This document shows positions 23,681-46,500 of a stretch of 64,000 nt of DNA, one piece after another. Numbering within the stretch: the first letter of the stretch is position 1; every line of letters begins with the position of its first letter. This DNA comes from Pristiophorus japonicus (Eukaryota), in NCBI RefSeq assembly GCF_044704955.1, contig NC_091979.1:79112001-79176000 (forward strand), in the 5' to 3' direction. The notes under the pieces are model-generated. The model saw nothing but the letters and a program-made list of their open reading frames with translations. It was not told where the DNA came from and ran no database searches. Position numbers and translations under genes: made by a program.

Positions 23681-24012
23681 TCCTTTAAATATAATTAAGG
23701 ATAGTTCAATGTGAATCCATGTTGGGCCTAGTTCCAGCATGATACACAAGTTACTGTAGAAATAATTGATGAGGGCACTGGGATTTGTCTAGCTCCTAAG
23801 GATGCAGTGAGCGCTTCAATGTGCACCTAGAATATGACTATTAAAAATGAGACCTCATAACGGCAGCCTTTCGGATATATTTGAGGAGGTCTTAGATTAA
23901 GCTATTCAAATAATCTTCACCAACCACAATTATCATCTTTAGAGAATGTGCAGCTGGAGATGGACATTAAAGGAACTGGAGATAACATGCAATTTATAGT
24001 TGAAAAGTCTAT

Positions 24013-27000
24013 GGGCCCGAATTTGATCAAACCTAAGTTCTGCCCGTTTTTCGGCGGTCCCTGGGCGGTGTGTGATTTTTTACTGCCCGCTACCATTGGG
24101 GCCGATTGGCGCGATTCATCCTGGTTTTGTCGGTGGGAGCGGGAGCGGGAGCGGCAGGCAGCGGGAGGCATCGGTCGGTAGCAGGAGTCGGCGGTAGGTG
24201 CAGGCCTCTCAACTTGGGAAAGATCAGAGGCTGTGTACTGCACTTGCGTGAGATTTGAAATTTATTTTTAGTAGTTTTTTTGGTCTGATGACCTCACTTT
24301 TCCCGCGATTGGGGCTGAGGGGTCAGCTGTACATGCTCATAAAATCCTGTGAGTGACTTGCACCTGACAGCTACAGAGGGAAGTCATTGAGAGAGGGAAG
24401 AGAATCATCAGACACCCACCTTGAAAACCCATCATGAGTGGTAGAAAAGCTGCCAGGAAGTCGAATGCAGGGAGGCTCAGAGCTCCCTGGTTTACAGATG
24501 ATGAGCTGGAGCCACTTGTCTCTGAAGTAGAGCCCGTTACAGAGAGCTCACCAGGGATGGTCGTGGCAAGCCAGCCCTGTCCCAATATAAACACATTTGG
24601 CGGGAGATTAGGGAGGCCGTGTCCGCAGTGGGCATCATGGTTTGTGATGGAGACCAGTGCAGGAAGAGTTGGAACAATGTGGTAGCGGCAGCAAGAGCAA
24701 GCAAAGATCTTATTGTTGCATTCCCGTACTACTGAAAAAATATATGTAGCCGTTGTGTGTGTGTGTGTGTGTGTTGCATCTGCAAACCGGTTAAAGATTG
24801 CAACTTTTATTTCTGCCAAAGCAGTGTGGCACGGGAGGGGGCCCAACAGAGGTAAGATAATGGGACTAAAGGCAGATAAATCCCCTGGACCTGATGGCTT
24901 GCATTCTAGGGTCTTAAGAGAAGTCGCGGCAGGGATTTTGGATGCATTGGTTGTAATTTACCAAAATTCCCTGGATTCTGGGGAGATCCCAGCAGATTGG
25001 AAAATTGCAAATGTGATGCCCCTATTTAAAAAAAGATGCAGACAAAAAGCAGGAAACTATAGACCAGTTAGCCTAACATCTGGGATTGGGAAAATGTTGG
25101 AGTCCATTATTAAAGAAGCAGTAACAGGACATTTGGAAAAGCAAAATTCAGTTAGGCAAAGTCAGCATGGATTTATGAAGGGGAAGTCATGTTTGACAAA
25201 TTTGTTGGAATTCTTTGAGGATGTAACAAACAGGGTGGATAAGGGGAAACTAGTGGATGGGTGTATTTGGACTTCCAGAAGGCATTTGACAAGGTGCCAC
25301 ATAAAAGGTTACTGCACAAGATAAAAGTTCATGGGGTTGAGGTAATATATTAGCATGGATAGAGGATTGGCTAACAGAAAACAGAGAGTCAGGATAAATG
25401 GGTCATTTTCAGGTTGGCAACCAGGAACTAGTGGGGTGCCACAGGGATCAGTGCTGAGGCTCCAACTATTTACAATCTATATTAACGACTTGGAAGAAGG
25501 GACTGAGTGTAACGTAGCCAAGTTTCCTGACGATACAAAGATGGGAGGAAAAGCAATGTGTGAGGAGGACACAAAAAAATCTGCAAAAGGACATAGACAG
25601 GCTAAGTGAGTGGGCAAAAATTTGGCAGATGGAGTATAACGTTGGAAAGTGTGAGATCATGCACTTTGGCAGAAAAAAATCAAAAAGCATGTTATTATTT
25701 AAATGGAGAAAGATTGCAAAGTGCCGCAGTACAGTGGGACCTGGGGGTACTTGTACATGAAACAGAAAAGGATAGTATGCAGGTACAGCAAGTGATCAGG
25801 AAGGCCAATGGAATCTTGGTCTTTATTGCAAAGGGGATCGAATATAAAAGCAGGGAAGTCTTGCTACAGCTATACAGGGTATTGCTGAGGCCACACCTGG
25901 AATACTGCGTGCAGTTTTGGTTTCCATATTTACAAAAGGATATACTTGCTTTGGAGGCAGTTCAGAGAAGGTTCACTAGGTTGATTCCGAAGATGAGGGG
26001 GTTGACTTATGAGAAAAGGTTGAGTAGGTTGGGCCTCTACTCATTGGAATTCAGAAGAATGAGAGGTGATCTTATCGAAACGTATAAGATTATGAGGGGG
26101 CTTGACAAGGTGGATGCAGAGAGAATGTTTCCACTGATGGGGGAGACTAGAACTAGAGGGCATGATCTTAGAATAAGGGGCCACCCATTTAAAACTATGA
26201 GGAGAAATTTCTTCTCTCAGAGGGTTGTAAATCTGTGGAATTCGCTGCCTCGGAGAGCTGTAGAAGCTGGTACAATGAATAAATTTAAGGCAGAAATAGG
26301 CAGTTTATTAAACGATAAGGTAATAAAGGGTTATGGCGTGCGGGCAGGGAGGTGGAGCTGAGTCCATGATCAGATCAGCCATGATCTTATTGAATGGCAG
26401 GGCAGGCTCGAGGGGCTGTATGGCCCACTCCTGTTCCTATTTCTTATGTTCTTTTGTTCTTATGAAGTGACTGACATCAAGGAGCGAGCCTTGGCGTTGG
26501 TGGGTGACCACCCCTGTACCACCACATGTGATGGTGCCGATCCCGTGCTACAAAATGATAAGTTTATCCGAATCTCCGGTCTGTGTTACACACATGTCAT
26601 GCATGGTCATGTAATGTGATGTCAAATGCATTTTAATGTACTGTCTGTCGGCATTTAGGGTGTGGTGATGTAGCCATGATAGTCCCTGAAACCGGTACTC
26701 CTGTCAGCAGTAACAACCGCTCCCCCTCACCAAACCCCCACCCCCCCCCCTCCGCCCCCCCGCTGCTAAACGCAGAAATGTTGTATTGTACTTACAGATG
26801 ATGAATCGGAGAGCACCGACTTAGGCACCCCATCCGCCCCTGGCACACAAAGGCCGTGTGCAACGTCAACACCATCCACCGCGACCTCATCAGGAGCCCA
26901 CCCCAGCCACTCCTTCTGCCCCCCCACCATCCCCCACCCCCCCATTCAACATCCCCTATAGCCCCCGCATCCACCCCCGCAACCCACAGAGATGAAGACC

Positions 27001-27850
27001 AGGAGGAAGAGCAGGGGGAAGGCCCAGTGTTTGTCCCACTTGAGCTCGAGGAGGTGGAAGAGGAGGACTCCATCCTCTTGACATGTGCCACCTGTGCGCC
27101 CAACATCAGTATCGGGGTCTGAGTTTTTGGGCTTCGACTCGGAGGAAGTGGGACCAAGCATTGTGAAGTGCTGCACCCGTACCATTAAAGCCACCAAGCC
27201 ACATCCACCCAGGTTGATGCAGCAAGGAGATGATGATGCAAGACGGGTGGAAGCAATGCAGGAAATGGTTTAGCTGTCAAGGACGAGCATCGACCTAGGT
27301 CGAGACCTCCTCCAAGCCATGGCTGGGATAGCTGCCAACATCGTCTCGTTTGCAGAGCAGCATATCAACAGTATGTCGCTGCTGATCACCGCGGTGCAGC
27401 GAACTGTCGACTCTGTCAATGCCATGCGGCAATCGATGGTCTTGGGATATGGCATGGAACCCCCCCAATGCCATACCAGCCAGGTTGACAGAACCAGAGG
27501 GTCCGGAGATACCAGCGTCTTCCATCTCACCATCTCCATTCTCTCCCCGATGAACATGACAGCAGCGCTCTGGGTGGACTGCTGCACCACGTGCTGGTAC
27601 CGATGCGGTGAGGAGCAGGGGTATGGGTCGGCATGGGGATGGGCAACCCATCAAGAGGAGAATGGGGCTCACTTGGAGGGGGGGGGAAGAGAGATGTGGG
27701 AGTGGGTAGAGGATTGGGTGTTGGTGTTGGTGATGTTTGTATATATTGTTTATGTTGTTGATGTTGGTGTTTAAAATGTTTCCTTTTGATGCTAAATGTA
27801 CTGTTTTTGAAATACTGTCAAATATTTTGCTTGACATGTTTGATTGTTCT
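24013..27850 (+). mobile_element. Harbinger-derived element with Myb/SANT-like ORF, interrupted by CR1
   Basis: GGGCCCGAATTTG terminus-like start; RAPWFTDDELEPLVSEVE at 24434; later low-complexity and coiled-coil remnants at 26800-27600. Right end approximate. Confidence 0.6.
24850..26463 (+). mobile_element. CR1 LINE copy 3, 5'-truncated
   Basis: KSPGPDGLH through RT motifs to tail TTCTTATGTTCT. Confidence 0.93.
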
Positions 27851-28049
27851 GCCACTTTTGAATGTTGTACAATTCAATACAGATTTTTTTTTACCACTTT
27901 TGGTCAGTGTCTAACTTTTAGATCGTGAGGGGTATGTGCTGAGAAATATACAAATGTCCTTAAAATGTAATGCAATGTGATAAAAACTTCGCCTTGCAGT
28001 TATGATGTGACTTTTTAATAGGTCCTGATATTACCTCATTTCGCTAAGC

Positions 28050-28267
28050 CTCTCTCAGCATAACCAATTTGTCCTACCTATGTCGTTGGTACCTACGTGG
28101 ACTAGAGCAACTGGGTCTTCCCATTCCCACTCCAAGTTCCTCTCCAGCCCAGAGGAGATGTCCTTAATCTTGGCACCGGGCAGACAACACAACCTTCGGG
28201 ACTCAAGCTCTCAGCTGCAGAGAACATTATCGATCCCCCTAATGAAACTGTCCCCTACCACTACAAC
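28050..28267 (-). repeat. Inverted duplicate of CR1 ORF1 segment 28570-28787
   Basis: 218-bp reverse complement, roughly 93% identical by eye. Confidence 0.88.
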
Positions 28268-29063
28268 TTTTAGGTAAGGGTCACCAATCCAGGACAGGTG
28301 GATTTCAATGACAGATAGTTCCAGAACTTGGAGGCCAGACATTATGGTTGGCATTTAAGTGTACAGTTTTTGAGCTGACAGATCGCCGAACCCCACCCCT
28401 AACATTACATGTTATTCAATCAATGGAATATATATTTGCAACTTCTATATTTGAGCAAATGTTCTTGTCAAGATCTCATCCTGGCACTTCAGAGAAACTT
28501 ACAGGATTTTACTATTGGCTATATACTTTCACATGAGCTCATAACGGGCCCAAACGGGTAAAAAGAAATGTTGTAGTGGTAGGGGACAGTATCATTAGGG
28601 GGATAGATAATGTTCTCTGCAGCCGAGAGCTCGAGTCCCGAAGGTTGTGTTGCCTGCCCGGTGCCAGGATTAAGGACATTTCCTCTGGGCTGAAGAGGAA
28701 CTTGGAGTGGGAATGGGAAGACCCAGTTGTCATGGTCCACGTAGGTACCAACAACATAGGTAGGACAAAGTGGTTATGCTGTGAGAGTATGAGCAGCTTG
28801 GGGCTAGATTAAAAAGCAGAACCATAAAGGTAATAATCTCTGGATTACTACCCGAACCACGAGCAAATTTGCATAGGGTAAATAAGATCAGAGAGACGAA
28901 CATGTGGCTCAAAGACTGATGTGGGAAAAATGGATTTCGATTCATGGGCACTGGCACCAGTACTTTGGGACGGGCTTCACTTGAACCATGTTGGGACCAG
29001 TGTCCTGGTGAAACGAATAAATCGGGCTGTAGAGAGGGCTTTAAACTAAATAGTGGCGGGGAG

Positions 29064-30605
29064 ATAAAAACAGAAAATGCTGGAAATCCCAGCGGGTCAA
29101 GCAGCATCTGTGGAGAGAAAGCAGAGTTAACATTTCGGGTCGATGACCCTTTGTCAGAACTGGAGAGTGTTCGGAAAGAACAGATTATTAACAAGCACTG
29201 AAAGAAGAAGGGGAAGAAGGAACAAAAGGGAAGGTCTGTGATAGGTTGGAAGACAGGAGAGATTAGAGAGACAAAAGGGATGATGGCCCAAATTCAAATG
29301 GTAATGACAGGAGATAGAAAAACATTAGTCAAGATAGGATGTGAATGGCGGGATAATGACCAACTGCCATTAGAGACAAGGAGAAGAAAATAAATAAATA
29401 AATAGGCTCTCGGGGGGTGTTGGGGGGAGGGGTGCGTGGGGGGGGTGGGGGAATGGAGCCAAAGATTGGCAGCGATTACGCTCTGAAATTATTGAACTCG
29501 ATGTTGAGTCCAGAAGGCTGTAAAGTGCCTAAACGAAAGATGAGGTGCTGTTCCTCGAGCTTGCGTTGAGTTTCGTTGGAACAGTGTAGGAGACCGAGGA
29601 TGGAGAGGTCAGAGATTGGAGTGGAGAATTAAAGTGACCGGAAACTCAGGGTCACACTTGCGGACTGAACGGAGGTGCTCCGCAAAGCGGTCACTCAATC
29701 TACGCTTGGTCTCCTCAATGTAGAGGAGACCACATCGTGTCTACAGTATACTAAATTGAAAGTACAAGTAAATCGCTGTTTCGCCTGGAAGGAGTATTTG
29801 AGGCCCTGGATAGTGGGAAGGGAGGAGGTAAAAGGGCAGGTGTTGCATCTCCTGCACTTGCACGGAAAGGTGCCATGGGAAGTGGAGGGCCTGCTGGGGG
29901 TGACTGTGGAATGGACCAGGGTGTCGCGGAGGGGGCGGTCCTTTCGGAATGCTGAGATGGGATGGGAGGGGAAGATGTGATTGGTGGTGGGATCATGCTA
30001 GAGGTGGCAGAAATGGCGGAGGATAATCCGTTGAACGTGGAGGCTGCTGGGGTGAAAGGTGAAGACAAGGGGAACCCTGCCATGGTTCTGACAGGGTAGG
30101 GGAAGGGCTGAGAGCAGAGGTGCGGGAAATAGAACAGACACGGTCGACGGCCATGTTAACCACGGCAGAGAGGAATCCTCTGTTGAGGAAAAAGGAAGAC
30201 AGGTCAGAGGCATTAGTGTGAAAGGTGGCATCATCAGACTAGATGCGATGGAGACGGAGAAACTCGGATAATGGAATGGAGTCCTTACAGGATGCACCCA
30301 ATCTTGACTAATGTTTTTCTAACTCCTGGCATTACCATTTGAATTTGGGCCATAATCCATTTTGTCTCTCTAATCTCTCCTCTCTTCCACCTTATCCAGA
30401 CCTTCCCTTTTGTTCTTTCTCCGCCTCCCCCTTTCAGTGCTTGTTAAGAATTTGTTCTTTCCGAACACTCTCCAGTTCTGACGAAGGGTCATCGACCCAA
30501 AACGTTAACTCTGCTTTCTCTCCACAGGTGCTGCCTGACCCGCTGAAATTTCCAGCATTTTCTATTTTTATTCCAGATTCCAGCATCTGCAGTACTTTGC
30601 TTTTG
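29064..30605 (-). mobile_element. Penelope-like element with GIY-YIG endonuclease and inverted pLTRs
   Basis: Minus strand gives LVYC..RCGLLYIEETKRRLSDRFAEHLRSV; 29064-29341 and 30295-30571 are inverted copies. Confidence 0.9.
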
Positions 30606-31224
30606 TTGTGGGGCGGAGGGAGGGTGGGGGGGTGAAGAGTTCAGGTAAGGAGAAATTTTAAAAGTCAAAGAGCAAGGAGAAAGCAATAGAGCAGTGTTGC
30701 GGTGGGAGAAATGATAACCAGAGTGTGAGAGGAAGGGACAGAATGTATAAAATTAGAAGTGTATCAGAAAGTGGGATCAAAGCAGGGAAAAATCATAAAA
30801 AGGCAAAATTAAAAGCTGAATGCACGCAGCATTTGTAACAAGATAGATGAGTTGACAGCACAAATAGATACAAATGGGTATGATCTGATAGCCATTACAG
30901 ACACGTGGTTGCAAGGTGACCAAGGCTGGGAACTGAACATTCAGGGGTATTTGACAATTCGGAGGGATAGACAGAAAGGAAAAGGAGGTGGGGTAGCTCT
31001 GTTAATAGAGGATGAGATCAGTGCAGTAGTGAGAAATGATATTGGCTCAGAAGATCAAGATGTAGAATCAGTATGGGTGGAGATAAGAAATAATATGGGG
31101 AAGAAGTCACTGGTGGGAGTGGTCAATAGGCCCCCTAACAGTTGCTACACTGTGGGATGGAGAATAAATCAAGAAATAATGGAGGCTTGTAAGAATAATC
31201 ATGGGCTATTTTAATCTTCATATT

Positions 31225-31587
31225 ACATAGAAACATAGAAAATTGGTGCAGGAGTAGGCCATTCGGCCCTTCGAGCCTGCACCGCCATTCAATGAGTTCA
31301 TGGCTGAACATGCAACCTCAGTACCCCATTCCTGCTTTCTCGCCATACCCCTTGATCCCCCTAGTAGTAAGGACTACATCTAACTCCTTTTTGAATATAA
31401 TTAGTGAATTGGCCTCAACAATTTTCTGTGGTAGAGAATTCCATAGGTTCACCACTCTCTGGGTGAAGAAGTTTCTCCTCATCTCGGTCCTAAATGGCTT
31501 ACCCCTTATCCTTAGACTGTGACCCCTGGTTCTGGACTTCCCCAACATTGGGAACATTCTTCCTGCATCTAACCTGTCTAAACCCGT
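31225..31587 (-). mobile_element. Young CR1 3' fragment nested antisense in CR1 copy 4
   Basis: Tail seen as ACATAGAAACATAGAAA on the plus strand; TATT flanking duplication. Confidence 0.92.
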
Positions 31588-32975
31588 TATTGATTGGGAC
31601 AAGCCAAATTGGCCAAGGTAGCCTTGAGGAAGAATTCATAGAGTGTATCTGGGATGGTTTCCTTGAACAGTACATTGCAAACCAATCAGGAAGCAGGCTA
31701 TCCTGGATCTGATACTGTGTAAATGATCTCGTAGTAAAGGATCCTCTAGGAAAGAGTGATCATAGTATAGTTAAATTTCAAATTCAGTTGGCGGGTGAGA
31801 AAGTTGGATCTCAAACCAGTGTCCTGATCTTAAATAAAGGCGATTACAAAGGTGTGAAGGCAGAGTTGGCTAAAGTGGACTGGGAAAATAGATTAAAATG
31901 TAAGACGGTTGATAAGCATTGGCAGACATTTAAGGAGATATTGCATAACTCTCAACAAAAATATATTCCAATGAGAATGACAGACTTTAAGAAAGGGAGA
32001 ACTATCCGTGGTTAACCAAGGAAGTAAAGGATGGTATCAAATTAAAAACAAAAGCATACAAAGTGGTCAAGATTAGTGGGAGGCCAGAGGATTGTGAAAT
32101 TTTTAAAAAGCAACAAAGGACGACTAAAATAATAATAAAGAGAAGGAAGATAGAGTATGAGAGTAAACTAGCAAGAAATATAAAAACAGATAAGTAAGAG
32201 CTTGTACATGTATATAAAAAGGAATAGAGTAGCTAAAGTAAACATTGGTCCCTCAGAAGATGAAACTGGGGAATTAATAATGGAGAACAGGGAAATGGCA
32301 GAGACATTGAACAAATATTTTGTATCGGTCTTCACGGTAGAAGACACTAAAAATATCAAAATAATGGATAATCAAGGGGCTATAGGGAGGGAGGAACTTA
32401 AAACAATCACTATCACTGGCAGATGGAGCATAATATGGGCAAGTATGAGGTTATCCACTTTAGCAGAAAAAATAAAAAAGCAAATTATTATTTAAATGGA
32501 GAGAAATTACAAAATGTTGCAGTTCAGAGGGGCCTGGGTGTCCTTGTGGATGAAACACAAAAAGTTAGTATGCAGGTACAGCAAGTAATCAGGAAGGCAA
32601 ATGGAATCTTGGCCTTTATTGCAAGGAGGGTGGAGTATAAAAGCAGAGAAGTCCTGCTGCAACTGTACAGGGTACTGGTGAGGCCACACCTGGAGTACTG
32701 CGTACAGTTTTGATCTCCGTATTTAAGGAAGGATATACTTGCATTGGAGGCTGTTCAGAGAAGGTTCATTAGGTTGATTTCAGAGATGAGGGGGTTGACT
32801 TATGAGGATAGGTTGAGTAGGTTGGGCCTATACACATTGGAGTTTAGAAGAACAAGAGGTGATCTTACTGAAACGTATAAAATTCTGAGGGAGCTCATCA
32901 AGGTAGTTGCAGAGAGGATGTTTCCCCTCGTGAGGAAATCTAGAACTAGGGGGCATAGTTTCAGCATAAAGGGTC

Positions 32976-34078
32976 ATAGAAACATCGAAAATAGGTGCAG
33001 GAGTAGGCCATTCGGCCCTTCGAGCCTGCACCGCCATTCAATTAGTTCATGGCTGAACATGCAACTTTAGTACCCCATTCCTGCTTTCTCGCCATACCCA
33101 TTGATCCCCCTAGTAGTAAGGACTACATCTAACTCCTTTTTGAATATATTTAGTGAATTGGCCTCAACAACTTTCTGTGGTAGAGAATTCCATAGGTTCA
33201 CCACTCTCTGGGTGAAGAAGTTTCTCCTCATCTCGGTCCTAAATGGCTTACCCCTTACCCTTAGACTGTGACCCCTGGTTCTGGACATCCCCAACATTGG
33301 GAACATTCTTCCTGCATCTAACCTGTCTAAACCCGTTAGAATTTTAAACGTTTCTATGAGATCCTCTCTCATTCTTCTGAACTCCAGTGAATACAAGCCC
33401 AGTTGATCCAGTCTTTCTTGATATGTCAGTCCCGCCATCCCGGGAATCAGTCTGGTGAACCTTCGCTGCACTCCCTCAATAGCAAGAATGTCCTTCCTCA
33501 AGTTAGGAGACCAAAACTGTACACAATACTCCAGGTGTGGCCTCACTAAGGCCCTGTACAACTAGAGCAACACCTCCCTGCCCCTGTACTCAAATCCCCT
33601 CGCTATGAAGGTCAACATGCCATTTGCTTTCTTAACCGCCTGCTGTACCTGCATGCCAACCTTCAATGACTGATGTACCATGACACCCAGGTCTCGTTGC
33701 ACCTCCCCTTTTCCTAATCTGTCACCATTCAGATAATAGTCTCTCTCTCTGTTTTTACCACCAAAGTGGATAACCTCACATTTATCCACATTATACTTCA
33801 TCTGCCATGCATTTGCCCACTCACCTAACCTATCCAAGTCACTCTGCAGCCTCATAGCATCCTCCTCGTAGTTCACACTGCCACCCAACTTAGTGTCATC
33901 CGCAAATTTGGAGATACTACATTTAATCCCCTCATCTAAATCATTAATGTACAATGTAAACAGCTGGGGCCCCAGCACAGAACCTTGCGGTACCCCACTA
34001 GTCACCGCCTGCCATTCTGAAAAGTACCCATTTACTCCTACTTTTTGCTTCCTGTCTGACAACCAGTTCTCAATCCAT
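32976..34078 (-). mobile_element. Young CR1 3' fragment (RT to tail) nested antisense in CR1 copy 4
   Basis: ORFs 33562-34062 and 33067-33561 are in frame with a single stop; GTC flanking duplication. Confidence 0.93.
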
Positions 34079-34639
34079 GTCGCCCATTTAGAACTGAGAT
34101 GAGGAGGAATTTCTTCTCTCAGAGGGTTGTAAATCTGTGGAATTCTCTGCCCCAGAAAGTTGTGGAGGCTGGGTCATTGAATATATTTAAGGTGGAGATA
34201 AGACAGATTCTTGAGCGATAAGGGAGTGAGACGGGTTATGGGGAGCGGGCAGGTAAGTGGAGCTGAGCCCAAGCTCAGATCAGCCATGATCTTATTAAAT
34301 GGTGGAGCAGTCTCTAGGGGCCAAATGGCCTACTCCTGCTCCTATTTCTTATGTTCTTATGTACTCCACACAAGACTCAGGGCAACAGGAATAGAAGTGG
34401 ACTAAAGAGTTAGCAGAAACATTTTGAAAATCAATAAATCAAAGATAACCTATACAGATTAACATCAAACTCTGTTAATTAAAGGATTAATTCAAAATTG
34501 TTGCAATATAATTATGAAACGGGGAGCAGAAACAAATTTAAAATGTGAAATTTCATTACAGCTGATGCAAATCCAGTTTCCTGCTGGGGCTACTGATAAA
34601 TAATTTACGTTGAGATGTCACAACATTTAACACAAATCT

Positions 34640-35303
34640 TTGAACAAGTTGAGAAAGCTGCTTTAAAAGCATATGGGATCCTTGGCTTTATTAACAGAGG
34701 AATAGAGTAGAAAAGCAAGGAAGTTATGCTAAACCTTCATAAAACACTGGCTAGGCCTCAGCTGGAGTATGGTGTTCCATTCTGGCACCACACTTTAGGA
34801 AGGATGTCAAAGTCTTAGATAGATACAGAAGAGATTTACCAGTATGGTACCAGGGATGAGGGACTTCAGTTATGTGGAGAGACTGGAGAAACTGGGGTTG
34901 TTCTCCTTAGAGCAGAGAAGGTCAAGAGGCGATTTGATAGCAGTATTCAAAATCATGAATAGTTTTGATAGAGTAAATAAGGAGAAACTATTTCTAGTGG
35001 AAGGATCAGTAACCAGAGGACAAATATTTAACGTAATTGGCAAAAGAACCAGAGGTGACATGAGGCAACTTTTTTTTGTACACACAGCGCGCTGTTGTGA
35101 TATGGAATGCACTGTCTGAAAGAATGGTGGAAGCAGATGCTATGGCAACATTAAAAAGAGAATTGGACAAATACTTGAAGGGAAAAAAATACAGGGCTAT
35201 GGGGAAAGAGCAGGGGAGTGGGATTAACTGGATAACTCTACCAAAGAGCCGGCACAGGCATGATGGGACGAATGACTTCCTTCTGTGCTGTATCATTCTA
35301 TGA
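34640..35303 (+). mobile_element. CR1 3' fragment, ATTCTATG-tailed family
   Basis: MVPGMRDFSYVERLEKLGLFSLEQRR; same family as 61790-63398. Confidence 0.88.
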
Positions 35304-35454
35304 TTTTGCCAGAAAGCAATGTACAATTAGTTCATAAGAAACTAATGCAAGCTAAGAAATTGGAGTTCTGGTGGTGAAATAATTAAATGTATTAAACTAA
35401 GTTGCAGAACAAATCTGTTAACTTTGTACTAAATCAAGGACCGAGTTTACTCAC

Positions 35455-36018
35455 CGACTCTTTCAATTTTAAATTCATCCCTTTGATTAGTCAATGCTAT
35501 TAATCTTTGTAAATATATTGTCTGCTTCGTATCATTCATATCAATGCTCACAAACACTTTCTTGTCCAGGAAGGCCTTTTCTAAAATGAAGTTGTCAGGG
35601 GCAACATATTCATTTATCTGCTCCTCTTTTGTATAGACCCACTGTACGAGGGACTGTAGAAGTTCACATTCTATCACCCGTGCCATTTCTTCCTGCAGTT
35701 CACAAAGTAAATGTTCTATATGAAGTGCTACATCCAACATCTCAAAGTGAGGTCCACTTAGTTCAATGAAGGTCCCCATAATATTCACTGTTTCTTCCAT
35801 GGATATCTGTTTCATTTCGCGATGGGCTGCTAAGACTTCATGTTCAGCTGTTGTAAAGTAGCTGATGTTTTTATTTTCTATGATGAGGTGCTCTTGAGGT
35901 AGTAGTATGGTATTATTGATCCAAAACTGAGCACGTTCCAGAAAGGGATAATCTTTACCACAAAGCTTAATGAGTAGTTCAGTTCCTTGCTCCCGTTCAC
36001 GTTTTAAACATGTTGAAT
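35455..36018 (-). CDS. Host gene coding exon (564 nt, phase 1-1), unidentified gene
   Basis: 187-codon open frame in non-repeat DNA; acceptor TTCTGTTGTTTATACAG, donor G|GTGAGT. Confidence 0.85.
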
Positions 36019-36263
36019 CTGTATAAACAACAGAAGACAGCATAAAAAAGCACTATCTTTTTTGTCGAGTTGTAATTGCAGAGCACCTCGATTTTGAGGC
36101 TTTCTATTTTATATATTATTTGTGTATGCATAACATACAATATATTATCTTTAGTTGAATAGACTTTCAAAATACATATAATATAAATGGAAGGGGAAAT
36201 AATTGCTAACTCTTCTGCTAAACTATTCCTGGGCTGGTCAGCAGTTTATTACTCAATGGTCTA

Positions 36264-36744
36264 TGAAGAGGTAAATTACAAATCTTTAAAATAATAAAAC
36301 ATTGTGCCATTTTGAAACTGAGCTAATATATTTTAAAATTGAACCTACAGACTGGGAAACATTCCACGAGAAACAAAACTTTCCAGTTCGCAGACCAAAG
36401 ACCTTGGGAGGCAAAAGTACAGACATATAACATAGAAACTGAACTGAATAACAAGATAAGGGTAGAATAGATGACAGTAATTGTATCTGGAATTACCATT
36501 TAAGGCATGTGGAAGCCAGACTGGAGGAAGCGCTGTACCAATCAATCATGTATTAATCAATCATGTATTAATTGTAACTTATGTAATTATGTAATGACTT
36601 AATCTGAAATTGTATAGAGGACAACGTCGCCAGCCATTTCGCTGAGCGTTCCTTACGGAATAGCTCCCCTGCTAGCTTGTAATAAAACTGCATTTTCTTT
36701 AAGGCTAATAAACTTCGAGTGGTGGTTTGAAGTTAACCCTTACA
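36264..36744 (+). repeat. ERV 5' LTR (481 bp)
   Basis: TGAAGAGG...CCCTTACA; AATAAA; roughly 95% identical to the 3' LTR by eye. Confidence 0.95.
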
Positions 36745-36746
36745 AA

Positions 36747-36765
36747 TGGGCGTTGCGAGCAGGGT
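36747..36765 (+). promoter_or_regulatory. ERV primer binding site, tRNA-Ser(UGA/CGA)-like
   Basis: TGGGCGTTGCGAGCAGGGT versus the tRNA-Ser(UGA) complement TGGCGCAGCGAGCAGGGT. Confidence 0.7.
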
Positions 36766-37066
36766 CTCAACTCAAAACCCGAACCAACTTAAAACCGAGT
36801 CAGTAGAGAATTACCTTGAGAAATTCTCCTCCCAAGAGGCCCGGCCAGAGATCCAACGAATCTGAAGCAGAGTCCGTGTAGCCGGTAAATCTAGTTGAGG
36901 GGCACGTCAGGGCACTGTAAGTAAATACGTGTGTCGGGAGAATAACTAATGTTCCAAGATATCGGGGTATCCCCGGTGAGGGCGGACTAGCTATCCAGCC
37001 AGAAACGAGGTTCCGCATAAGTAAAGGCGGAAAAAGGTTCCACGTAAGTAAGGGCTTAAACGTTAT

Positions 37067-38880
37067 ATGATGTGGATGTCCCAACGAAAAGTAACCCAGG
37101 GAAACTATACATGCTCCACGGGAATTGAATGTTGTGTTTTTAATATAACGTTTGACTGTAGACAGTGGACCTATTCGGCACCAGTCTTTGGGAATTTTGT
37201 ACTGATCCTCCATAAAAACGAGAATGTAACGTTCAACTTTACCTGGGAGACCGACGGTCCCGGGATGATGTGTAAGCAAGGTTGCGACAATAATTCCCAG
37301 AATATAACCAAAATACGGAAATAAGCCTGGAATACTAACAAAATGGAGTATAGCAATAGTACAGAATGGAAACAGGCAACCTTGGGAGACGGGAACTGGG
37401 TGATGTGTACAAATAATTCACAGTTTGGCGGGAGGGGTACATGGCTGGCCATGATAAGTGTAAAATAGCCCCGTCCGAACCAGGAACGGATGCCACACAT
37501 ACAAAGGCTGCACGATACATGTCTGAGCACACTGATAGTCCCTTCAATAATAAATTTAACAATAATATACAGTATGTCCGAAAGATGGTACCCAGGTATT
37601 GTAAGAACCCAGATCTTGCCCTAAAGATAACAAAAGCTCATAATTGGCAAAACATACGAGATACAGTGTGAGGAGGGTTATGAATGGGACTAGGAGCATT
37701 AAACTCAAACTGCAGAACAAAATACAGAAAGCGGGACAATTGACTAAAGATGCCATAACGCTGTCAGATCTGTGGCAGAAACCCTTACAGGCCAATAGCT
37801 AGCGGGGATGGCTGTCAGACAAAATGATATGGTAGTGGACAAACAAAACTGGCTGGGATCAGCAACAGGTATTGGCCAATTTAACGCGGGAAGCCAATAA
37901 GACTCACTACCTTATAATGGGCCTGATTAAGGAAGGACAACGGGCTGAATTAGAAAGGATAGCATTCTCTGGGAATGCCCCACAATGGGCCAAACTGTTT
38001 CAGTTTGACCAACGAAATCTAACACTCAGGCCGGAGATGAAGCATATGCGATGTGATGAAGAGGGATGTAACATGACTATGTTGTTGGCTAATGTTAATA
38101 ACAGTCAGATATGGTGTGAGTTTGTAACCCTACCACAGCTATTCGGTAAAAACTTATGGAAGCCACGGTTTTACAGAAAATGGATAGACCCGAAGAATAA
38201 AACGCACGAAGGGATGGACTGTGTAAAGTGGCCATTCGGGCAAGTATGCCCGCTACATACACCAGTGGTTGAACCATGCAGTATGGAAGGCACAGCAGGG
38301 GCTTGTGAATGGCAGCTGCAACCCTTAAATGATACCATAATACATGAAACCGGACAAACTACATATGTGTAACTAGTAACCACACGGTATACTTGAACGC
38401 GGATCGATTGGAACCTCCGGTAAATGAGTGTCAGAAGGAAATATGTGTCATCTTCGACGTTAAACCGAACAAGTCCTATCAAATAGGACAATGGAAGAAT
38501 ATTGCGCAACATAGAAGCACCAGAGGTCTATCAGTACTCCCCCAATAGTGGACTAGAGAAAGTTAAAGGCCTTTTTGAAAAAACATATTCAGGTGACCAA
38601 GTACCTGGGAGAAGAAAGGGAACGGTTACTCAGACAAAAGGTCGTAATGAGTTACACAAAACAAGAACTTATTCAAGTGACGGCGGTACTAAGTGACCTC
38701 ATGGTTCACCATTGGTGCGACATTTTTAAGGGTTGGTCACCCAAGGCCTATGCAGTCCTCAAATTAATGTGGCACCCAATCGTGATAATAATGGTAGTGG
38801 TGGGGATATGTATTGTGATTCAATTATATTTGATGTGTGAGATCCGAGGGATGTACAACCGCGTGGTTCTAGTCGAATAG
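37067..38880 (+). pseudogene. env: Envelope / class I fusion glycoprotein pseudogene
   Basis: Many N-X-S/T sites; fusion-peptide-like DTV*GGL*MGLGALNS at 37660-37707; heptad KLQNKIQKAGQL; Cys cluster at 38220-38306; HHWCDIFKGWSP then TM helix IVIIMVVVGICIVIQLYL; several stops and frameshifts. Confidence 0.85.
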
Positions 38881-39153
38881 CAAACAGCCTTGTTAACTAT
38901 GTAATGTAAGTGTAATAGGGAGGCGAATTACTTTGTAACGCGTTAGGGAAACAACTAAGACTCCTGAGCTTATGCTCACTATGTACAAAAACAAATATAA
39001 GTAGCTTGCAAATAATCCCAGGGAAATGATCAGGGGTAGCATGTAAAGACTCCGTTAAAAGACGGAACTACGAGCAATCCAAAGGAGATGGATTTGATCA
39101 CCATTCCCGGTAGATGGCTCAGAACATATATGTGGTAGGCTGATTATGTCACC

Positions 39154-39165
39154 AACAGGAGGGAC
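39154..39165 (+). promoter_or_regulatory. Polypurine tract
   Basis: AACAGGAGGGAC immediately before the 3' LTR TG. Confidence 0.75.
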
Positions 39166-39674
39166 TGAAGAGGTAAATTACAAATCTTTAAAATAATAAA
39201 ACATTGTGCCATTTTGAAACTGAGCTAATATATTTTAAAATGGAACCTACAGACTGTGAGAAACAGTCCACGAGAAAACAAAACTTTCCAGTTCACAGAC
39301 CAAAGACTTTGGGAGGCAAAAGTACAGACAGATAACATAGAAACTGAACTGAATAACAAGATAAGGGTAGAATAGAATGGATGACAGTAATTGTATCCGG
39401 AACTACCATTTAAGGCATGTGGAAACCAGACTGGAGGAAGCGCTGTACCAATCAATCATGTATTAATCAATCATGTATTAATTAATCATGTATTTATTGT
39501 AACTTACGTAATTACGTAATGACTTAATCTGAAATTGTATAAAGGACAACGTCTCCAGTCATTTAGCTGAGCGTTCCTTATGGAAAGCTCCCTGCTAGCT
39601 TGTATTAATTAATAAAACTGCATTTACTTTAAGGCTAACGGACTTCGAGTGGTGGTTTGAAGTTAACCCTCACA
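39166..39674 (+). repeat. ERV 3' LTR (509 bp)
   Basis: Direct repeat of the 5' LTR; TATAAA and AATAAA; ends CCCTCACA. Confidence 0.95.
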
Positions 39675-39963
39675 GTCTATTTATACAACGTGTTCTCCTG
39701 TAATCAGAACAACATTACCAAGGCTGGAGATCACTGGGTATGTTTTTAGGTCTTTTCTGCTCTTCTGATGCCAAATATTTTAGCTTCCTAATTTTAGGTT
39801 ACTGTCATAGGTGTGTTTTAAATCCTCATAGCCTCATTTCCCTATTGCCATTTATCTTGGTATGTTTTGGTAAAATGCCCAGGATAACAAATAGAAATCT
39901 TTACTTTAAAATTTCCTTTGGCTACTAAATATATCTCACACCTCCATAGGAACTTTTGCATAC

Positions 39964-40539: not shown

Positions 40540-43500
40540 GGGAACGGTAGCATAGTGGTCACATCACTGGACGAGTAATCCAGAGGCCTGGACTAATGAT
40601 CCAGAGACATGAGTTCAAATCCCACCACAGCAGCTGGGGAATTTAAATTCAGTTAATTAAATAAATCTGTAATAAAAAGCTAGGATCAGTAATGGTGCCC
40701 ATGAAACTCCCGGATTGTCGTAAAAACCCATCTGGTTCACTAATGTCCTTTATGGAAGAAAATCTGCCGTCCTTATCCAGTCTGGCCTATATGTGACTCC
40801 AGACCCACAATAATTTGGTTGACTCTTAATTGCCCTCTGAAATGGCCCAGCAAGCCACTCAGTTGTACACAACCGCTGCGGAAAACAATGAATAAAACCG
40901 GGCGGACTACCCGGCATCGAACTTGGCATTGGCTACAGACACGACAACGGCACATCCAGCCCAGTCGACCCTGCAAGGTCCTTCTCACCAACATTTGGGG
41001 ACTTGTGCCAAAATTGGAAGAGCTGTCCCGCAGACTAAACAAGCAAAAGCCTGACATAGTCATACTCACAGAATCATTCCGCCAATGTCCCAAACTCCTC
41101 CATCACCTTCCCACCGGCAGGACAGACCCACCAGGGATGGCGACACAGTGGTATACAGTCATGAGGGAGTGGCTTTGGGAGTCCTCAACATTAACTCTGG
41201 ACCTCATGAAATCTCATGACTTCAGGTCAAGCATGGACGAAGAAATCTCCTACTAATTACCACCTACCGTCCTCCCTCAGCTGATGAATCAGTCCTCCTC
41301 CATGTTGAACACCACTTGGAAGAAGCACTGAGAGTAGCAAGGGCACAGAATGTACTTTGGGTAGGGGAATTCAATATCCATCATCAAGAGTGGCTCGGTA
41401 GCACCACTACTGACTGAACTGGCCGAGTCCTGAAGGACATAACTGCAAGACTGGGCCTGCAGCAGGTGATGAGAGAACCAACATGAGAGAAAAACCTACT
41501 TGACCTCATCCTCACCAATCTACTTATCGCCGATGCATCTATCCATGACATCATTGGTAGCAGCGACCATCACACAGTCATTGTGGAGATGAAGTCCCAT
41601 CTTCACATGGAGGACACCATCCATCGTGTTGTGTGACACTATCATCTTGCTAAATGGATAGATTCAGAACAGATCTAGCAGCTCAAAACTGGGCATCCAT
41701 GAGGTGCTGTGGGCCTTCAGCAGCAGCAGAATTGTATTCTACCACAATCTGTAACCTCATGGCCCGGCATATCCCTCACTCTACCATTACCATTAAGCCA
41801 GGGGACGAACACTTATACAATAAGTGGGTGCAGAAGAGCATGCCAGGAGCAGCACCAGACCTAAATATGAGGTGCCAACCTGGGGAAGCTGCAACACAGG
41901 ACTACATGCATGCTAAAAGCAGAAGGTGTGGTGGTCGCTGCTACCAATGATGTCATGGATAGATGCATCTGCGATAGGTAGATTGGCTAAGGCTAAGCGA
42001 TCCCACAACCAACGGATCAGATTAAAGCTCTGTAGTCCTGCCACATCCAGTTGTGAATGATAGTGGACCATTAAACAACTAACAGGAGGAGGAGGCTCCA
42101 TGAATATCCCCATCCTCAATGATGGCGGAGCCCAGCACGTGAGTGCAAAAGACAAGATTGAAGTGTTTACAACCATCTTCAGCCAGAAGTGGCAAGTGGA
42201 TGATCCATATCGGCCTCTTCCTGAAGTCCCCACCATCACAGAAGCCAGTCTTCAGCCAATTTGATTCACTCCATGTGATATCAAAAATCGGCTGAGTGCA
42301 CTGCATACAGCAAAGACTATATGCGTCCTAACAATATCCCGGCTGTTGTGCTAAAGACTTGTGCTCCAGAGCTAGCTGCGCCTCTGGCCAAACTGTTCCA
42401 GTATAGCTACAACACTGGCATCTGCCTGACAATGCAGAAAACTGCCCAGGTATGTCCTGTCTACAAAAAGCAGGACAAATCCAATCTGGCCAATTACCGC
42501 CACATCAGTGTTATGTCTCAAATAAAGCAATGTGACTGAGTACTGTAGACTTGAGTAAGTGTGAACTTAGTTTTTTTAATCTGACTCCAGAGTGCTGGCA
42601 CAGCATGGGAGGCCTGCTTATATACAGTGCTGGGATCCCTTGGGACTCCAACAGATGCACCCTCTGGTGGCAGTAGAATGCTGGTTACAAGGTGTTGCAT
42701 ACATAACATCACTCCCACCCCCAAATTCAATAGTTACACTTATTTACAGGGTGAGACGATCTGGGGCTTTCCGCTCCCTGGTCGATCATCTCGGTACAAA
42801 CACAGGTGCAGGTGAGTTAGTTGGGCCTTCGCTGGACTGCTGCGCAGCTGGCTTTGCTAGGCTGCTGGGGATGATGAGTTCAGCTTCGTGGTTAACCATA
42901 ATGTCGGTTGCCACTTGTGTGTGTCGAAGTTGGTGGTGTCCTCTTCAGGTTGCTCGTGGCTGTCTGTGAATTGCAGTTTGGTCCAAATGCTTTCTGCAAG
43001 TTAGTCCATTTGTAAGTTTGACCTCAAACACCCTACTCCCTTCTTTGGCTACGACACTGCCAGTAAGCCATTTGGGACCATGTCCATAGTTGAGTACAAA
43101 TACAGGGTCATTGACTTCAATATTGCGTGACAAATTTGCGCGATCATGGTACATGCTTTGTTGATGCCGACTGCCCTCGACACGATCATGGAGATCAGGG
43201 TGGACTAGAGAGAGTTTTGAGTGCCCTTTTCAAGAGCAGTTTGGCAGGGGGGGACCCCGGTGAGTGAGTGGGGTCTTGTGCGGTCGCTGAGCAGGACTCG
43301 GGACAGGCGGGTTTGCAGGGAGCCTTCCGACGTGCGTTTCAAGCTTTGCTTGATGGTTTGGACTGCCTGTTCTGCCTGGCCGTTGGATGCGGGCTTCAAC
43401 GGGGCAGATGTGACGTGCTTGATCCCATTGTGGGTCATGAATTCCTTGAATTCAGCGCTGGTGAAGCATGGCCCATTGTCGCTGACAAGGACATCAGGCA

Positions 43501-46500
43501 GGCCGTACTTGGCAAACATGGCTCGTAGGCTTTCGATGGTGGCAGTGGACATGCTTACAGACATTATTACACATTCAATCCATTTTGAATAAGCATCCAC
43601 AACAACCAAAAACATTTTGCCTAGAAACGGGCCAGCGAAATCAACGTGGATCCTAGACCACGGTTTGGAGGGCCATGACCACAAACTTAACGGTGCCTCC
43701 CTGGGTGAGAGTTGAGAGCAAATGTTGCATTGGCGCACGCAAGACTCCAAATCTGAGTCGATGCTGGGCCACCACACATAGGATCTGGCTATAGCTTTCA
43801 TCATTACTATGCCTGCATGGGTACTGTGTAGGTCAAAACCACGCGATTACCCCACAAAAGACAGTCCGCCTGTATGACCATTTCGTCTTTGCGCCGCTGC
43901 AGCAGCTTGATCTCTTCATGCATCCAAGGATCCTGGCTGGCCCAGGTCCTGATCTGGCAGGCCGTAACAGGTGACTTTTTGTTTTCAAATGCATCCATCA
44001 CCAAGAGCAAGTGTGCAGGCTGTGCCATTTCCACCTCGGTGGTGGGCAATGGTAGCCAACTGAGAGCATCAGTGCAGTTCTCTGTGCCTGACCCATGGCG
44101 AGTTATATCATTATATGCAGACAGCATGAATGCCCATCTTTGGATGCGAGCAGAGGCATTGGTATTAATACCTTTGCTCTCTGAGAATAGCGATATGAGT
44201 GGCTTATGATCAGTTTCTAGCCCAAACAGATACTGGTGCATTTTTTTCACCTTGTAAACACATGCCAGAGCTTCTTTTTCAATCATGCTGTAAGCCCTTT
44301 CTGCCTTGGACAAACTCCTGGATGCATAAATGACCGGTTGCAATGTTCCCCATTCGTTTGATTGTTGTAACACACACCCGACCTCATAGGAAGACGCATT
44401 GCAAGCTAGCACTAAACGTTTACATGGGTCATACAGAACCAGCAGTTTGTTGGAACATAACAGATTTCTGGCTTTCTCAAAAGCAGTCTCTTGTGATTTC
44501 CCCCATACCCAGTCATCTTCCTTGCGTAGCAACAGATGTAGACATTCTAGCAAGGTGCTTAACCTGGGTAAGAAATTACCGAAATAGTTAAGGAGTCTCG
44601 GGAACGACCGCAGCTCCGTCACGTTCTGTGGTCTCGGCGCATTCTTAAAGGCCTCCGTCTTGGTGTCAATGGGTCTGATGCCGTCTGCTGTGATTCTTCT
44701 CCCTAAGAACTCAACCTCTGGAGCCAGGAAAACACACTTCGAGCATTTCAACCTGAGCCCCACACGATCTAGCCAACTTAAAACCTCTTCCTGGTTCTGC
44801 AAGTGTTCGATGGTGTCCCGACCTGTGATCAATATGTCGTCCTGGAAAACCACGGTGCACGGAACCGACTTTAGCAGACTTTCCATGTTCCTTTGAAAAA
44901 TAGCCGTGGCTGATCGAATCCCAAACGGACATTTATTGTAGATGAACAGACCTTTGTGCGTGTTGATGCAGGTGAGGCCTTTCGAAGATTCCGCCAGCTC
45001 TTGCGTCATGTAGGCTGAGGTCAGGTCCAACTTAGTGAACATCTTCCCTCCTGCCAGCGCCACAAATAGGTTGTCTGCCTTGGGTAGTGGGTACTGGTCC
45101 TGCAGCGAAAAACGATTAATCGTTACTTTATAGTCCCCACAAATTCTGACCGTGTCATCGCCCTTGAGAACCGGAATAATCGGACTGGTCCACTCATTGA
45201 ACTCAACCGGTGCGATGATGCCCTCTCGTTGCAGCCTGTCCAGCTCGATCTCCACTTTCTCTCACATCATGTATGGCACCGCACATGGGTCGTGTACCGG
45301 GAACCAAGTGGATCTGCACCTTCACCCCAGAGAAATTTCCAATCCCTAGCTCAAACAACGACGGGACCTTGCTCAAAACCTGGGCACATGAGACGTCGTC
45401 GACGGACGAAAGCGCTCGGATGTCGTCCCAGTTCCAGCGGATTTTTCCCAGCCAGCTTCTGCCAAACAGGGTGGGGCCATCTCCTGGTACAATCCATAGT
45501 GGTAGTTTGTGCACCGTTCCATCATAGGAGACTTTTACTGCTGCACTGTCAATTACAGGGATCAGCTCTTTAGTATAAGTTCTCAGCTTGGTATGAATAG
45601 GGCTCAGCTTGGGCCTTTGTACCTTGTTGCACCACAGCCTCTTGAAGGCCTTTTTGCTCAAGAGAGACTGACTCGCACCCGTGTCCAATTCCATGGATAC
45701 TGGAATTCCGTTCAGTTCAACTTTTAACATGATCGGTGGACATTTAGTGGTGAAGGTGTGTATCCCATACACTTCTGCCTCCTCGGTTTGAGTCTCTAGT
45801 TCAGTTTGATCCGCCATGGATCGGTCTTCCTCTGCAGCGTGGTGGTTTGCAGGGTTTACAGCTTGTCTGCACATTTACTGGAGGTATCCTATTGTTTCAC
45901 AGCCTTTGCATGCATAGTGTTTGAAGCGGCATTGATGGGCTCAATGATCACCTCTGCAGCATCAACAAGATGTTAATCGCCTCCCATTCACACTTGATGG
46001 TGGACTCTGAGTCATCTGAGGTCGTGCAGCTGCAGGCGTTTACGTTCTGCCCTATGCAGTCCTGCCTGAAAACGACGTTACTTTGTGTACAGTACTTGCC
46101 GAAGCATCTTTATGCTGCAAAATTTGTTTGGTATTATCGCTGGTGGACATAAATGCCTGGGCTTTCGTGAGGGCTTTGCTCAGGTTCGGTGTTTCAACAG
46201 TCAATAGTTTGCGAAGGATAACATCATGGCCAATGCCAAGCACAAAAATGTCTCTTAGCATTTGCTCCAGGAATCCAACAAATTCGCAATGTCCTGCAAG
46301 GGGCCTTAGTTTGGCGATGTAGCTCACCACTTCCTGGCCTTCAGACCATTGACATGTATAAAATCGATACCTTGCCATCAGAACGCTCTCCTTCAGAATT
46401 AGGTGCTCCCGGATCAGCATACACAGTTCTTCATATGACTTAGTTGTTGGTTTCACCGGAACAAGAAGATTCTTCATGAGACCATAGGTTTCGCCCCGCA

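Follow-up and report, generated by a model that had tools for sequence, protein, structure and literature searches.

A dead envelope gene in an internally deleted sawshark endogenous retrovirus belongs to the Ovex1 ORF3 type and is predicted to be F-like

What kind of envelope gene lies on the forward strand at positions 37067–38880 of a 64,000-nucleotide stretch of the Pristiophorus japonicus genome (NC_091979.1, positions 79,112,001 to 79,176,000; hereafter the window)? A first-pass annotation, made from the letters alone, had read it as an envelope (Env) with the architecture of a paramyxovirus fusion protein (F) rather than that of a canonical retroviral transmembrane (TM) subunit. The analysis presented here argues, with good confidence, for the dead env of an internally deleted endogenous retrovirus (ERV), whose parents likely carried a SnRV-like (class III) pol, and whose Env, of the Ovex1 ORF3 type, is predicted to be F-like (class Ib). 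As a locus it is an unremarkable dead provirus; the interest lies in the Env family.

Aligned to L030, a relative from the same genome, the env falls into five frame segments (37052–37564, 37564–37707, 37710 to ~38360, 38357–38542, and 38539–38901), with at least seven internal in-frame stops, at 37322, 37466, 37669, 37681, 37800, 37833, and 38554, and a terminal stop at 38878 that is early compared to L030. The copy is non-coding today, and all the peptides quoted in the first-pass annotation were located across three forward frames. The remnant of the surface subunit (37052–37650) holds an N-terminal beta domain, putatively receptor-binding, and a short F2-like segment; nine N-glycan sequons in the first frame segment bear out its glycan-rich character. 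The cleavage site has indeed decayed, although its placement at QNIR is three residues too far downstream, since the basic motif of the relatives maps to 37639–37650, and the last three residues of QNIR correspond to the start of the fusion peptide. The Gly-rich fusion peptide remnant (37651–37710), with two stops and a frameshift at its end, is followed by predicted long helices of an HRA-like N-terminal heptad region (37710–37990; helices 223–251 and 263–317 of the L030 model). Then come a Cys-rich beta region (37998–38545), whose predicted fold corresponds to domains I/II in F and in foamy virus Env (domain model with pLDDT 84.5, Foldseek), and a C-terminal portion (38546–38880) with a second heptad, the membrane-proximal motif HHW..IF.GWSP..HP, a TM helix, and a short tail. 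The post-cleavage subunit, estimated earlier at ~400 residues, spans 410 codons in the window and 422–429 residues in four relatives.

This env is not an isolated sequence. A search of its own genome (5.9 Gb) gave 150 scored matches out of 1134 candidates, at ~85%, 73%, and 52% identity, and a profile built from 17 natural rows retrieved 106 protein homologs from 1.84 billion proteins (E ≤ 0.001), so the signal is not due to chance. Thirty of the homologs were looked up, five of them without a name, and the representatives are all annotated as 'uncharacterized' or hypothetical. Their named hosts comprise sharks, bichir, pipefish, lungfish, caecilian, frogs, turtles, birds, echidna, koala, and marmoset, with the closest ones in horn shark and sawshark. 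One of the homologs is chicken LOC422926 (873 aa; hmmsearch E 3e-12), taken as Ovex1 ORF3 because of its length and the neighbouring locus number given in PMC2717909; the envelope identity of this frame was left uncertain there (Carre-Eusebe 2009). HHalign against the chicken protein reached 98.8% in an alignment of 386 columns that begins at the cleavage site and extends to the TM helix. By sequence, therefore, the window env can be assigned to the Ovex1 ORF3-type family on its fusion peptide, Cys pattern, and WW..GWSP..HP motif. The motif pattern occurs in 28 of the 106 homologs, many of which are fragmentary, and HHW..GWSP..HP is a mark of this family. Pairwise ratios of nonsynonymous to synonymous substitution (0.26–0.88 in 36 pairs of family A, the window's parents, versus 0.52–1.12 in 28 pairs of a second family, B) fit selection on env during the spread of family A, subject to the biases of such estimates. 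A further protein, P0186, whose label assigns it to a Bacteroidales assembly, falls into a 90% cluster together with env-like proteins of koala and is likely host contamination.

The fold was modelled on the relative L030. The model holds nested beta-rich domains I–III between two predicted heptads, as in class Ib (F-like) fusion proteins, which supports the F-like architecture proposed in the first-pass annotation. Its best PDB structure matches are paramyxovirus F, at 7–15% sequence identity; the nested F2/F1 order of F is retained, and the matching range begins at residue 144, preceded by an extra domain. Structures of the TLV_coat/gp41 type are not among the fold matches listed, which does not exclude them. 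Baculovirus F, whose appearance as best match had been proposed as a refutation, ranks level with paramyxovirus F, and both have been placed in one fold class (including PMC13524379); that test is therefore ill-posed. Alternatively, the Env could be some class I fusogen whose likeness to F arises from generic long helices and beta sandwiches instead of shared ancestry. This is unlikely, because the nested domain order is kept and the first 27 rows listed for a helix-free domain of 171 residues, compared with Foldseek as the single method, are still all F or foamy Env (probabilities 0.69–1.0, TMq ≤ 0.52; first unrelated row, probability 0.10).

The link to F is visible in the predicted structure only. 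The Cys spacing that had seemed to recall F1 of paramyxoviruses and pneumoviruses does not emerge from sequence comparison (no matches in a PDB profile search at E ≤ 10), and other PDB sequence searches gave chance matches or none. Likewise, the profile check suggested earlier, Fusion_gly (PF00523), found no match in seven window pieces, nine env pieces of relatives (26 proteins scanned), or the 43 homologs scanned of the 106. No fusion-protein family rose above threshold in the Pfam scans of these three sets, and the weak matches to GP41 (E 0.012, 0.061) and Baculo_F (E 0.026, 0.03) concern the membrane-proximal end only. A word-indexed homolog search with a 178-residue piece retained none of 152 candidates, the ESM Atlas gave low recognition with weak mixed leads, and a strict pattern of basic site plus Gly-rich peptide fits 17 of the 106 homologs. 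Gamma-type Envs are defined by an immunosuppressive domain (ISD) followed by CX6CC in a short TM subunit (PMC9967133). As the first-pass annotation had stated, such motifs are lacking: CX6CC or an ISD-like sequence occurs in none of the three window frames and none of 25 alignment rows, while the ISD pattern is found in 0 of the 106 homologs and CX6CC somewhere in four. By this test the Env is not gamma-type.

Several of 40 stretches of 10 kb taken from the same genome contain full proviruses of ~8.5–8.8 kb with reverse transcriptase (RT), RNase H, and integrase. Homologous env genes stand on two pol types, families A and B, ~30% identical in RT. The RT motifs of family A (LPQGFHNSP.IFHQA and LQYVDD) match SnRV and differ from those of lokiretroviruses and WDSV in a published alignment compared by eye, whereas those of family B match HERV-L/MuERV-L; a quick 52-row RT tree, built without named references, sets family A apart from gamma/epsilon-like rows and from B. 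The 5-bp target-site duplication (TSD) tabulated for class III/clade Huo-type ERVs (PMC4299795) has its counterpart in the GTCTA of the window, and crocodilian ERVs outside classes I and II are known to have env (PMC4299795). The env of family B (L041–L060), whose pol is ERV-L-like, is ~40–50% identical to that of the window's family. A recent env swap considered for L031 was rejected: a family-B provirus with its own LTRs (long terminal repeats) and 5-bp TSD (L031:289–5942, in G000:C3:328707200–328717199) lies inside a family-A provirus, within the integrase region of the latter. SnRV-like motifs also occur in a third retroviral RT lineage (L042:1228–3282, reverse strand), which adjoins a deleted family-B copy. 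Finally, the ~73% subfamily (L033, L034, L037–L040, and many matches on C27, C30, and small contigs) clusters on C27 and small contigs next to satellite-like tandem repeats, L037 holds a 2.76-kb tandem duplication, and the subfamily may have spread by segmental duplication.

The membrane-proximal motif had been taken as loki-type, and an extension of lokiretroviruses to cartilaginous fish could be argued from the similar layout of loki Env, which is also F-like, and from the fact that some RT search matches are named NYNRIN-like while loki integrase is CGIN1-like. This reading is largely refuted and highly improbable, and the window element is likely not a lokiretrovirus. By eye, loki RT carries CPFG..NSPAEFN and an IYVDD-type motif, as opposed to the SnRV-type motifs of the parents. 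GWSP, HHW, and WWD occur zero times in the portion of the loki supplement searched (23 mentions of 'Env protein'; motifs may be split at line ends), where, as judged by eye, the N-subunit of eight loki Env entries is short and their fusion peptide is not of the Gly-Thr-Gly-Leu-Gly kind. Moreover, loki Env matches PF00523 (Wang and Han 2021, PMC7947760), which this family does not, and lokiretroviruses were found in none of the three Chondrichthyes genomes in that survey's row.

The provirus around the env is complete but short, and its anatomy can be read directly. Between two copies of GTCTA (36259–36263 and 39675–39679) lie, on the forward strand, a 481-bp 5′ LTR (TG...CA; 36264–36744), a primer-binding site (36747–36765) complementary to tRNA-Ser(TGA) with one mismatch and one extra base, a leader (36766–37049) that aligns to the post-LTR region of L026, L027, L028, and L032, the env, a polypurine tract (39157–39165) identical to that preceding the 3′ LTR in L024 and L029, and a 509-bp 3′ LTR (TG...CA; 39166–39674). 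The first-pass annotation had thus marked a real env and missed the LTRs, TSD, primer site, and deletion junction beyond it. A 5-bp TSD is also present at L024 and L029. The primer-site pattern has 71 matching places, with tRNA-Ser(TGA) present at four of six loci checked, and it is dense on the contigs that hold the ~73% subfamily. Relatives of both families carry differing primer-site variants after the 5′ LTR (L024, L028, L029, L032, L042, L055, L056, L059, and L060), which we take to resemble tRNA-Ser isotypes, the TGA type alone having been checked. The LTRs of the window copy diverge by 0.045 (Kimura two-parameter distance, 479 sites), against 0.023–0.074 in 13 relatives. At the mammalian rate adopted by Wang and Han, this corresponds to roughly 10 million years; the slower substitution rates of cartilaginous fish would imply a greater age.

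At 37049/37050 the parental leader is fused straight to env, with the loss of ~5 kb comprising gag-pol and the env signal peptide; an imperfect microhomology of ~6 nt marks the junction (37050–37055) in comparison with full-length relatives. These have a Met and a hydrophobic stretch directly upstream of the breakpoint, so that the suspected deletion of the env 5′ end, with its signal peptide, was correct. A template switch or end-joining at this short microhomology is the likely origin of the deletion. It is found at this locus only (the window alone, among 40 scored matches out of 205 candidates, spans the junction), and env-retaining deletions are a recurrent, ordinary outcome, since internal deletions unlike this one are present in further copies (L025, L042, and L056). 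The LTR-leader-env-LTR layout, together with a GTAAGT hexamer immediately 5′ of the junction, could also suggest that the element is the retro-copy of a spliced env mRNA or belongs to a non-autonomous family that was amplified. This is scarcely credible: GT...AG fits no register of the junction in the parents, the window still keeps GTAAGT, the truncated signal peptide means that the env start is not intact, and, among the 40 scored matches, the junction is spanned by the window alone. The top PDB structure matches might be invoked for a paramyxovirus F gene that became integrated, or for the capture of a cellular membrane protein. This reading has a negligible probability, being already refuted by context, namely the env position in pol-bearing proviruses, homologs residing in vertebrate genomes, and 7–15% identity to F.

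If the predicted class Ib fold is correct, F and foamy Env (PMC11468914) suggest, by analogy, how the intact ancestor of this retroviral Env would have worked. Its precursor would have been cleaved at the basic site, the N-terminal beta domain would have taken the role of a separate attachment protein in receptor binding, and the fusion peptide and two heptads would then have refolded around the beta-rich core to fuse the membranes.

Class III envelopes described to date clustered with class I, and the original HERV-L env had not been identified (Vargiu 2016, PMC4724089), while four scenarios for Env origin were left open (Wang and Han 2021, PMC7947760). A tentative proposal is that this family is the long-missing native Env of class III (ERV-L/SnRV-like) retroviruses and that, with foamy, loki, and walleye epsilonretrovirus Envs, the F-like fold would be the ancestral retroviral fusogen, gamma- and beta-type Envs being later replacements. 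If so, Ovex1 ORF3 would belong to an overlooked class of retained, possibly co-opted, F-like envelope genes, as would some long open frames, so far unnamed, of koala, echidna, marmoset, turtles, and frogs. Since a single genome pairs this Env with both SnRV-like and ERV-L-like pol, and its homologs range from sharks to mammals, the questions of HERV-L env, Ovex1 ORF3, and Env origin become testable by structure-guided phylogeny. The results also suggest that an entire class escapes env screens that rely on gamma/beta profiles or on Pfam. No assignment of the family to the F fold was found in the literature searched (subscription journals and Repbase outside its scope), including the parts consulted, supplements aside, of PMC12583693, PMC13709493, PMC12129022, PMC10152393, PMC11521997, and two bioRxiv preprints.

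Elsewhere in the window, a 201-codon stop-free frame directly left of the provirus (35447–36052, reverse strand) reads like a host exon and has no Pfam match, and a decayed gypsy-like pol (43205–45261, reverse strand) matches RT, RNase H, and integrase. Pieces of what are presumably CR1-like long interspersed nuclear elements occupy much of 24000–35200.

F-like Envs have already been published for lokiretroviruses (sequence, PMC7947760), foamy viruses (structure, PMC11468914), and gypsy errantiviruses (PMC13524379). Foamy Env has its receptor-binding domain inserted inside the scaffold and an N-terminal membrane anchor (Fernandez 2024, PMC11468914), whereas here the extra domain is predicted to follow a signal peptide and to precede the F2-like segment; PF03408 (foamy Env) has no match in the window pieces, relatives, or homologs scanned, and the parental pol is not foamy-type by motif. 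Paramyxovirus and pneumovirus F share the predicted structure and nested order, but differ in the extra N-terminal domain of 140 residues and the retroviral context found here. Loki Env, likewise retroviral and F-like, has a furin site, a fusion peptide, a coiled coil, and a TM helix (PMC7947760), although RT motifs, membrane-proximal motif, and PF00523 match set it apart, and one passage of loki integrase looks unlike that of the parents. The walleye epsilonretrovirus Envs (WEHV1 and WDSV) match in predicted structure (E 8.6e-7 and 3.7e-4) and also lack gamma-type hallmarks (PMC9967133), yet they are about twice as long, accompany a class I pol, and have no sequence link shown. In BFVD, these Envs and a fish filovirus glycoprotein score with the L030 model (Q9WHI8, A4GTG3, and A0A2P1GML9), hinting that they may also be F-like. 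SnRV and the clade Huo/ERV3-ERV4 elements share the RT motifs and the 5-bp TSD (PMC6001957, PMC4299795), and the coiled-coil gag N-terminus and zinc-knuckle-like motif are as described for SnRV. The last comparison is with the Ovex1 ORF3/TERV/GGLTR11-type Env: Ovex1 ORF3 is an open, conserved frame of 873 residues with a longer N-subunit and no signal peptide, while the window copy is dead and ~17% identical to it, but the homology extends over the whole post-cleavage subunit, both are free of CKS-17 and CX6CC, and Ovex1 pol is likewise described as near SnRV, in class III (PMC2717909).
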